Sequence record: PV344601.1
Strand: one strand, 5' to 3'
Length of the DNA: 64,000 nucleotides
DNA from: Staphylococcus phage RQ1
Below, piece after piece: positions 58,856 to 59,384 of this stretch. The notes under the pieces were generated by a model, which ran no database searches, was not told the DNA's origin, and saw only the letters and a list, made by a program, of their open reading frames with translations. The stretch's first letter is position 1. Each line of letters starts with the position of its first letter. The position numbers and the translations under genes were made by a program.

Positions 58856-58927
58856 CTTGACACTCATAATACTAAAGCATTACAAAACGAATTGCAAGCA
58901 TAAATTTATAAAATTAATGTTAAAAAC

Positions 58928-59150
58928 GCTTGAAACCGTTGGGGGAGTAAGTAAAAAAGTTTTTAAATTATTTTTAAGTGCTATTTTCTCCCTTTAAAAT
59001 GCATGTAGGCGCACGCATGCACGTACACACGTACGCGCGCGTATATGGAAGAAACACGATTTTACCAAATATTAGTTTTACTTACGGGGAGTAAGGCTCA
59101 AAGGCAATTTTGAAGATATTTTTTAAATTAATTTTCTGTGATTTTTAGGT
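58928..59150. repeat. two ~60-bp imperfect direct repeats (GGGGAGTAAG...TTTTTAAATTATTTTT) flanking an alternating purine-pyrimidine tract
   Basis: Direct inspection. Confidence 0.6.
59009..59047. other. 39-nt perfect alternating purine-pyrimidine GC-rich tract (Z-DNA-prone)
   Basis: GCGCACGCATGCACGTACACACGTACGCGCGCGTATATG. Confidence 0.8.
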
Positions 59151-59231
59151 CCGTGTTATAGTATATGTACAGTAAAAAAAGGAACAACAAAGAAACGCAT
59201 AACGAACTTTGAAAAGTGTATAAATATTATA

Positions 59232-59307
59232 TTGTGTATAACATTATTTTTATATTATAAGATTGTATTGTGTAAAATATAATGGTATATTAATGTATTG
59301 TGTACAA
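59232..59307 (+). repeat. array of TTGTGTACAA-like motifs (inverse complement of the 53 kb array) in a very AT-rich stretch
   Basis: Copies at 59232 (TTGTGTATAA), 59268 (TTGTGTAAAA) and 59298 (perfect). Confidence 0.75.
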
Positions 59308-59384
59308 CATTATAAATTTTTATATGGTGGAGTACGTCTTTTTAAGACTGACCTGAGACGGTCTTGAGATAGGGTAAATTGCAA

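Follow-up and report, generated by a model that had tools for sequence, protein, structure and literature searches.

Left-handed Z-DNA requires a sequence in which purines and pyrimidines alternate, with many CG and CA steps. In 1989, Rahmouni and Wells reportedly described supercoil-driven Z-DNA at (CG)n inserts upstream of promoters in E. coli plasmids. The bop promoter of Halobacterium is said to be supercoiling-sensitive and to carry an alternating purine-pyrimidine element of 11 base pairs (bp), the RY box. Such sequences have been discussed as "flipons" or torsional buffers (PMC10474125, PMC13463272). According to a 2026 review, the torsional-buffer role of Z-DNA in bacteria is a leading hypothesis, with limited direct in vivo evidence and mostly computational support (PMC13463272). 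In phage N4, small hairpins extruded by supercoiling are recognised by the virion RNA polymerase at the early promoters (PMC13463272). A 2025 survey noted that Z-DNA has received hardly any study in prokaryotes and viruses. Here we describe a natural alternating tract in Staphylococcus phage RQ1 (PV344601.1). The stretch analysed is 64,000 nucleotides (nt) long and is called the window below. The tract lies in a spacer of 865 bp between a leftward and a rightward gene block:

59009..59047, no strand: perfect 39-nt alternating purine/pyrimidine tract, the Z-DNA-prone core (based on the sequence, the relatives and an energy estimate)

The tract resembles the plasmid inserts and flipons in that it is alternating, rich in CG and CA, and located upstream of promoters, here between divergent ones. 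Its predicted transition is also within the superhelical densities generated by transcription. Unlike those cases, which are engineered inserts or statistical enrichments, it is natural, is carried by a phage, and comes with comparative evidence from 15 variants for a constraint on alternation itself, while its Z-form is a prediction. Like the RY box, it is a natural alternating tract close to prokaryotic promoters, with a proposed role as a sensor of supercoiling. The RY box reportedly lies near the TATA box in an archaeon, whereas the tract is 29–51 bp long and is situated about 110 bp from two bacterial-type promoters in a virus. The N4 case is similar in the coupling of early transcription to supercoil-dependent non-B DNA, which is predicted here, and a conserved small hairpin (59080–59095) is present as well. 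In N4, however, the hairpins are promoter identity elements for the phage's own polymerase, whereas the promoters here look like host sigma-A type, and alternation rather than the hairpin is constrained. A promoter-proximal Z-forming tract is a known kind of element. As far as the literature was searched, a phage example with comparative evidence for selected alternation has not been described.

A preliminary description of the window had reported a perfect alternating, GC-rich run at this site, and both statements hold exactly. The GC fraction is 0.62 in the tract and 0.29 in the rest of the spacer. The longest alternating run in 200 first-order Markov simulations of the window was 15.4 nt on average and 20 nt at maximum. 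The steps are 8 CG, 5 CA, 2 TG and 4 TA. Sequences are regarded as Z-DNA-forming if alternation is uninterrupted over more than ~12 bp and CG and CA/TG steps dominate, as is the case here. Another alternating run of 8 nt (59000–59007) precedes the tract, separated from it by one base (G), and together they cover 48 nt, one base out of phase.

The closest database matches of the window are Staphylococcus phage VB-SauS-SA2 (SA2; 87% identity over 60% of 24 kilobases (kb)) and PT1-4, both of Sextaecvirus. Judged from its sequence, the source is a new Sextaecvirus-like Staphylococcus phage. In the phage collection searched, the whole spacer is common only to SA2 and PT1-4. The protein of the first rightward gene was used as a query and yielded 32 homologues in ENA and Logan assemblies, whose contigs were retrieved. 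IMG/VR contained no relatives by a related-locus search, and the spacer pattern scans there gave 0 matches. A pattern scan of genome contigs gave six matches, all by chance in unrelated bacteria, and a metagenome scan gave three, of which one (L021) is genuine. The final sample is composed of 19 tract-spanning loci with 15 distinct tracts, from more than 10 independent samples and two isolated phages (of S. aureus and S. gallinarum). Absence from relatives had been named in advance as an observation that would count against the element. All close relatives with sequence across the region have the tract.

The boundaries of the tract are identical in every spanning locus, after ...TGYAGG and before GG-AAGAAAC. 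The lengths of the 15 variants are 29, 35, 39, 41 (eight variants), 49, 49, 51 and 51 nt. All differences are even, multiples of 2, which preserves the phase. Alternation is perfect in 14 of the 15 variants; the metagenome contig L021 has a single G-to-C transversion, with both halves staying in phase. Among the eight distinct 41-nt tracts, 22 of the 41 columns are variable, so the sequence is free while the alternation is constrained. In a 10-sequence alignment, the substitutions in the tract comprise at least 24 transitions and 0 transversions, against 153 transitions and 172 transversions in the flanking spacer. At the flank ratio (transition fraction 0.47), the probability of 24 transitions in 24 substitutions is ~1e-8. 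The sequences of L012 and L014 are 61% identical in the tract, differing at 16 of the 41 positions, and 90–97% identical in the flanks. The number of CpG steps is held at 7–9 in every 41-nt variant. Transition-only substitutions, even length steps and sequence freedom together indicate that the constrained property is the alternation and not the sequence. This comparison suggests that the tract is conserved as a property, and that selection acts on the shape of DNA.

The energetics were approached with a simplified two-state B-Z estimate, based on the dinucleotide and junction energies of PMC3024258 (Table 1) and an assumed size of the topological domain. In this model the tract is the most Z-prone site of the window. 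The predicted onset of the B-Z transition is at a superhelical density (sigma) of about -0.040 in a 5-kb domain, and ranges from -0.034 to -0.056 for domains from 20 kb to 1 kb. The tracts of the relatives fall into a narrow band of predicted onset, -0.038 to -0.042. For related loci without the tract, the best predicted onset is -0.049.

Several simpler readings of the tract were rejected. An ATG at 58999 opens a 31-codon open reading frame (ORF) that runs through the tract and stops at the TAA of GGGGAGTAAG, a short repeat described below, but it has no ribosome-binding site. The length differences among variants (2, 6, 10 and 12 nt) are not multiples of 3 throughout, so that the frame is shifted and the tract is not coding; in PT1-4 there is also an early stop. 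A selected hairpin or cruciform within the tract was rejected as well, for the 15 tracts form less stable folds than shuffled versions with the same alternation and composition (mean z = +1.27, DNA parameters). The presence of GGGGAGTAAG on both sides could be taken as a 10-bp target duplication of a mobile insertion. Other copies of such an element are missing from the phage collection, pattern scans of IMG/VR gave 0 matches, and in phage 6ec both of the flanking motifs exist without the tract.

These motifs belong to an arrangement that had escaped the preliminary description. The whole element is an imperfect palindrome of ~150 bp with the tract at its centre and perfect 10-bp outer arms (58947–58956 and 59076–59085). 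Its parts are as follows:

58942..58951, plus strand: copy 1 of GGGGAGTAAG, overlapping the 5' outer palindrome arm GTAAGTAAAA (58947–58956)
58983..59000, plus strand: left conserved motif TTTTCTCCCTTTAAAAT, inverted partner of the right motif, nearly invariant in relatives
59043..59060, plus strand: right conserved motif TATATGGAAGAAACACGA, the most conserved block of the spacer
59076..59095, plus strand: 3' outer palindrome arm TTTTACTTAC and the hairpin CTTAC-GGGGA-GTAAG, which holds copy 2 of GGGGAGTAAG; the stem is conserved and the loop varies

The immediate flanks of the tract, TTTTCTCCCTTTAAAAT and the inverted TATATGGAAGAAACACG, are the two best-conserved blocks of the spacer. The inverted pair can also be written as TTTCTnCC...TAAAAT and TATATGGAAGAAAC, or as TTTCTnCC and GGAAGAAAC. 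The reverse complement of TATATGGAAGAAACACGA contains CGTGTTTCTTCCATATA, with a 17/17 match to the motif of 6ec. In 6ec both motifs are in the same inverted arrangement, and a 33-nt AT-rich spacer lies between them instead of the tract. A motif homologous to TTTTCTCCCTTTAAAAT is found in 6ec, DH5, F1 and Golestan-100, and the last three contain a single copy. The tract itself is missing from DH5, F1, 6ec and the myoviruses and is restricted to the SA2-like clade. Because 6ec, DH5, F1 and Golestan-100 have one or both flanking motifs without it, the tract is considered to have arisen within the SA2-like clade. The right motif was also searched for elsewhere in the window as a possible promoter of the phage sigma factor; no convincing further copies were seen, and it is unique in the window.

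Two direct repeats of ~60 bp had been reported on either side of the tract. Diverged relatives of each other do flank it, but their extent had been overstated. They consist of the 10-nt exact match GGGGAGTAAG (at 58942 and 59086) and a 34-nt stretch of 76% identity, displaced by a 16-nt indel. The 10-nt match alone is not significant. Its AGTAAG core is invariant in 10 relatives, and the hairpin at 59080–59095 keeps a stem of 5–6 bp with a loop of 3–5 nt across relatives. The two copies (58942–58951 and 59086–59095) change in parallel: GCCCGTAAGG is seen twice in PT1-4 and GGGAGAGTAAGA twice in L010. Such parallel change suggests concerted evolution or a shared binding partner.

The spacer had been characterised as a non-coding control region with promoter-like sites on both strands between divergent gene blocks, and this is supported. 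The sites are listed here:

58760..58855, minus strand: 5' leader of the leftward operon with 30-nt repeat units, CA-rich (GT-rich as read on the plus strand) and conserved in relatives
58869..58897, minus strand: putative leftward early promoter PL, TTGCAA-17-TAGTAT, read from the sequence and placed in a conserved block
59154..59162, plus strand: rightward promoter-like site P0, extended -10 TGTTATAGT, read from the sequence
59404..59578, plus strand: tandem rightward promoter modules P1–P3, upstream of the gene start at 59609/59612
59427, plus strand: P1, weak, TATGAT (promoter scan and repeat analysis)
59473–59501, plus strand: P2, TTGGCA-17-TATGAT with TG, scoring 10/12
59550–59578, plus strand: P3, perfect TTGACA-17-TATAAT, scoring 12/12

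The tract is located 111 bp from the -35 of PL and 109 bp from the -10 of P0. PL had been noticed before, and its hexamers are found on the minus strand at 58892–58897 (-35) and 58869–58874 (-10). Its score of 8/12 is under the scan threshold of 9; still, other Sextaecvirus clades and two Twortvirinae phages have kept it. The block around it (58834–58974, ~130 nt) is 73–78% identical in other Sextaecvirus clades, Twortvirinae myoviruses and one Arcanobacterium phage. The Twortvirinae with this block are S2G3, Fi4S2 and Golestan-100, and the S2G3 record matches it in two places. Among the related loci, the corresponding stretches are L003 2501–2631, L006 1501–1631 and L005 1501–1616. On the plus strand, TTGACA-17-TTACAA (58858–58886) fully overlaps PL in many, not all, relatives, and this putative site and PL may be mutually exclusive. 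The GT-rich repeat reported earlier corresponds to two 30-nt units (58793–58852) of 73% identity in the leader. At the equivalent of ~58855, an extra module of ~85 nt, which contains a leftward promoter-like site and a GT-rich leader unit, is present in SA2, L009, L010, L012 and L014.

On the rightward side, the P0 pattern TG(T/G)TA(T/A)A(G/T)T is kept in 10 of 10 aligned relatives, and its -35 region is poor. PL, P2 and P3 have -35 and -10 hexamers at the 16–18 bp spacing of sigma-70/sigma-A promoters. The number of rightward modules varies: L008 has one extra, and L010 has a duplicated -10 region.

Based on these data, it seems plausible, at slightly short of an even chance, that the tract is a DNA-level structural element selected for leaving the B-form, most likely by flipping to Z-DNA under negative supercoiling. 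A more specific proposal, held a little more tentatively, is that it is a naturally selected B-Z switch, which manages the torsion generated by transcription between the divergent early promoters of a lytic phage. Divergent transcription creates strong negative superhelicity between polymerases (PMC3024258). The tract would lie in an untranscribed or weakly transcribed spacer between PL and P0, in the middle of the palindrome and between two inverted copies of an older conserved motif. Under the twin-domain model, polymerases leaving PL and P0 in opposite directions would push negative supercoils into this spacer of ~260 bp. Near a sigma of -0.04, the tract would flip from B to Z and absorb ~6–7 turns. 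The flip might buffer or gate the torsional stress between PL and P0. It could curb uncontrolled melting and R-loops in the very AT-rich promoter DNA, and could uncouple or tune PL and P0. It would also change the relative geometry of the two flanking motifs. The activity of the promoters, the delivery of supercoils, the B-Z transition and its regulatory effect are all inferred. The AT-rich spacer at the same position in 6ec may melt easily and is consistent with a torsion-responsive element.

Several points weigh against this proposal. PL and P0 are putative promoters, recognised by consensus and conservation. Transcripts from the plus-strand site at 58858–58886 could run across the tract. 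The Z-DNA is predicted from a crude two-state model, which ignores the competing melting of AT-rich flanks and the topology of phage DNA. If a genome end exists ~300 bp rightward, the spacer may be topologically open early in infection. The transversion in L021 means that the alternation is not absolute. The shared architecture does not depend on the tract, which DH5, F1, 6ec and the myoviruses lack. Alternation would also be preserved if local mutation were strongly biased towards transitions.

The last point leads to the reading of the tract as a neutral, fast-evolving dinucleotide microsatellite, formed by slippage of (CG)n/(CA)n and by transition-biased mutation such as cytosine deamination. 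The faster evolution of the tract than of its flanks in L012 and L014, and the even length of every indel, fit this reading. It is nevertheless very improbable. With 0 or 1 transversion in at least 24 substitutions, a transition bias of more than ~90% would be required, against 47% in the adjacent DNA. The length is strongly modal at 41 nt (8 of 15 variants), the GC-richness and the 7–9 CpG steps are held within a spacer of 29% GC, and the boundaries are the same in every relative. Another reading places the function in proteins: a regulator would bind TTTCTnCC...TAAAAT and TATATGGAAGAAAC, and the tract would be a deformable spacer between them, favoured by selection because its CA/TG and CG steps bend or kink easily, or because it is recognised directly as a surface, and not for a full B-Z transition. 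Such a complex agrees with the palindromic, if imperfect, form of the element and with the flanking motifs, which show the strongest conservation in the spacer and are older than the tract; in other clades the motif is found as one copy, or as two inverted copies around a different spacer. The distance between motifs, however, varies (41, 47, 51, 52, 53 and 63 nt) and includes a half-turn change, which makes a rigid bridged complex awkward. Flexibility also needs no perfect alternation over 40 bp, and no DNA-binding protein was identified among the neighbouring ORFs scanned. This reading is regarded as unlikely, but it is clearly more probable than the microsatellite. Least probable, by a little, is an RNA element, in which transcription of the tract and palindrome would yield a structured leader or a small RNA. 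The TAAAAT at 58995–59000 resembles a -10 box and could start a transcript at the tract, the folding z-scores are mildly negative (only -2.3 and -1.9), and in the CTTAC-loop-GTAAG hairpin of L009 a C-to-U change keeps a G-U pair. A structured RNA was rejected, since the region has no Rfam match better than E = 3.7 and covariation is absent (RNAalifold covariation term +0.29, with pairs invariant or broken). The tract is also less self-complementary than expected, and RNA pairing needs no alternation.

Beyond P0, the spacer contains repeated sites that had been described as an AT-rich iteron array within an origin-like region. The array is present, with three copies of ~25 nt spaced 36 and 30 nt apart. 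It has an inverted twin 6.1 kb away, missed by the earlier inspection, and the two arrays bracket the early block:

53062..53147, minus strand: iteron/operator array A at the distal end of the leftward early block, with three exact TTGTGTACAA sites at spacings of 35 and 30 nt
59223..59313, plus strand: iteron/operator array B, three sites with the core TTGTGTA(T/A/C)AA, from repeat analysis
59340..59378, plus strand: near-invariant motif TTTTAAGACTGACCTGAGACGGTCTTGAGATAGGGTAAA, where contig ends cluster; recognisable in 6ec

The sites are 10-bp operator-like half-palindromes, TTGT-RY-ACAA. The two-array layout is kept in PT1-4, SA2, DH5 and 6ec, and array B has four copies in PT1-4, L010 and L021. 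The site sequence switches in both arrays together, clade by clade (TTGTGTACAA, TTCAGAATATT or TATACAATA), and this joint change points to a phage-specific binding protein. For such a protein, the sequences suggest that a repressor acting at operators, or a boundary or end-recognition factor, would fit at least as well as an initiator. The "outer" motifs AAGAC...AGACGG..ATAGG beside arrays A and B are shared between both ends.

An untranslated, G-poor CA/TA low-complexity stretch of ~1 kb (53180–54200), with many alternating runs of 18–24 nt, separates array A from the 3' end of the leftward block. The segments ranked second to fourth for Z-propensity in the window fall within it. A G-poor region like this (4–12% G) is present in SA2 and PT1-4, and the 6ec record has a similar alternating TG/TA-rich region near its end.

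Two kinds of systems are comparable to the arrays. Iteron-type phage origins, and the R1–R3 sites of lambda cosB beside the cleavage site, have short sites of this sort. They share with array B three or four regularly spaced short sites next to a highly conserved motif. They differ from it in that here the adjacent initiator or terminase gene is missing, the sites lie between promoters, and a second, inverted array is found 6.1 kb away. The left terminal repeat of T5 contains an untranslated repeat-rich injection-stop region with paired inverted repeats and DnaA-box-like sites (preprint 10.1101/866236). Small pre-early or early genes, large untranslated repeat regions and paired inverted repeats with DnaA-box-like sites such as TTTTACACA are common to T5 and this locus. 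Unlike in T5, the box sequence changes between Sextaecvirus clades, which argues against host DnaA. No Z-prone tract is reported for T5 (0 mentions of Z-DNA in preprint 10.1101/866236).

The label of an origin received no direct support. As a replication origin, the iterons would bind a phage initiator, and the AT-rich DNA, the palindrome or the Z-tract would be the zone of unwinding or priming. Repeated sites within very AT-rich DNA, and the same site in two inverted arrays, are in line with this. Paired origins such as oriL and oriR of SPP1 are reportedly arranged in a way that the paired inverted arrays recall. The minus-strand iterons at 59233–59241, 59269–59277 and 59299–59307 are TTATACACA, TTTTACACA and TTGTACACA, of which the first two conform to the relaxed DnaA-box consensus TTWTNCACA, like the injection-stop repeats of T5. 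This fit is probably coincidental because other clades use unrelated sites, and host DnaA is an unlikely binder since clades with related hosts have different iteron sequences. The window shows no enrichment of DnaA boxes (15 observed, 23 expected). No replication or initiator function was found among the flanking ORFs scanned in 54.6–64 kb, 0–10.4 kb and 43.8–52.8 kb, which include part of the small ORFs; the matches are a sigma factor, thioredoxin, homing endonucleases and families of unknown function. The whole spacer is 71% AT, against which no discrete unwinding element can be made out. The sites look like operator half-palindromes and lie between promoters, and the switch of GC skew at the spacer merely tracks the orientation of genes. 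An origin is thereby judged improbable.

Equally improbable is a genome-end or packaging element, in which the array and the invariant AAGAC...AGACGGT motif would be a site for terminase or end recognition (cosB- or pac-like, or a terminal-repeat boundary), and the palindrome and the tract would belong to a structure near the end, similar to the injection-stop region of T5 with its many repeats. Four of the 16 independent contig starts inside the spacer (contigs L011, L013, L035 and L043) fall within 30 nt, at the equivalents of 59354, 59363, 59364 and ~59335. The start at ~59335 is an Illumina adapter fused to phage sequence, and one of the other three begins an 84-kb contig. This clustering suggests a fixed DNA end, a terminal-repeat boundary, or a structural or rearrangement breakpoint at 59335–59364. 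The motif is conserved as far as 6ec, and the inverted arrays bracket small early genes and the 1-kb untranslated low-complexity region. The pre-early region of T5 is laid out similarly, with inverted repeats and DnaA boxes (preprint 10.1101/866236). Against these points, many assemblies read straight through the site, the putative ends are scattered over ~30 nt, and the terminase genes are 13 kb away. A genome end also leaves unexplained why a tract 300 bp away must alternate. The DH5 and 6ec records in GenBank each have a start or end close to array A; record ends are uninformative on true termini.

Two further observations concern the ends. A comparison of positions 1–100 with ~780–870 of the L021 contig MAVE01000123 shows that the first part of its leftward gene recurs in inverted orientation at the contig end, attached immediately to the right of the conserved AAAAATCGGAGAGAAATTTTTCG unit. 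Either a chimeric assembly or a snap-back close to an end of the DNA could account for this inversion. A likeness to the 12-bp inverted repeats at the boundaries of Twort-like terminal repeats, with only 7/12 matches by eye, was dropped.

The window has a GC content of 30% and carries structural, terminase and sigma-factor genes of the phage. The leftward block is composed of small genes of unknown function and begins with the following gene:

58471..58743, minus strand: first leftward early gene, 90 amino acids, with an AGGAG ribosome-binding site 8 nt upstream of the ATG at 58743

Homologues of its product were found, and its match to DUF5847 is weak. The rightward operon starts at 59609/59612 and encodes a 325-amino-acid phage sigma factor (phrog_5767, E = 7e-76) and thioredoxin. 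Judged from its position and content, the spacer region is an early-gene control hub. In PT1-4 and L042, the rightward early operon carries insertions of HNH endonucleases. Three paralogous phrog_4538 ORFs with homing-endonuclease and HTH matches are located at 1885–3186, 9190–10431 and 51609–52763.

The architecture of two arrays around the early block is a lead on the genome organisation or packaging of Sextaecvirus. For the tract, the clade offers one well-delimited locus with 15 natural alleles that keep the alternation while sequence and length change. In sister clades the place of the tract is taken by an AT-rich spacer between the same flanking motifs, or a single motif is present. The S. 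aureus phage SA2 is a culturable relative in which the tract could be edited. Whether Z-DNA has a selected function in bacteria and their viruses is still an open question. If the proposal of a B-Z switch is true, the transitions and 2-nt indels across the 15 variants would be direct comparative evidence that Z-forming potential is a selected trait. The tract would then be a "flipon" of a bacterial virus, in a tractable genetic system where it could be swapped for the AT-rich spacer of 6ec.

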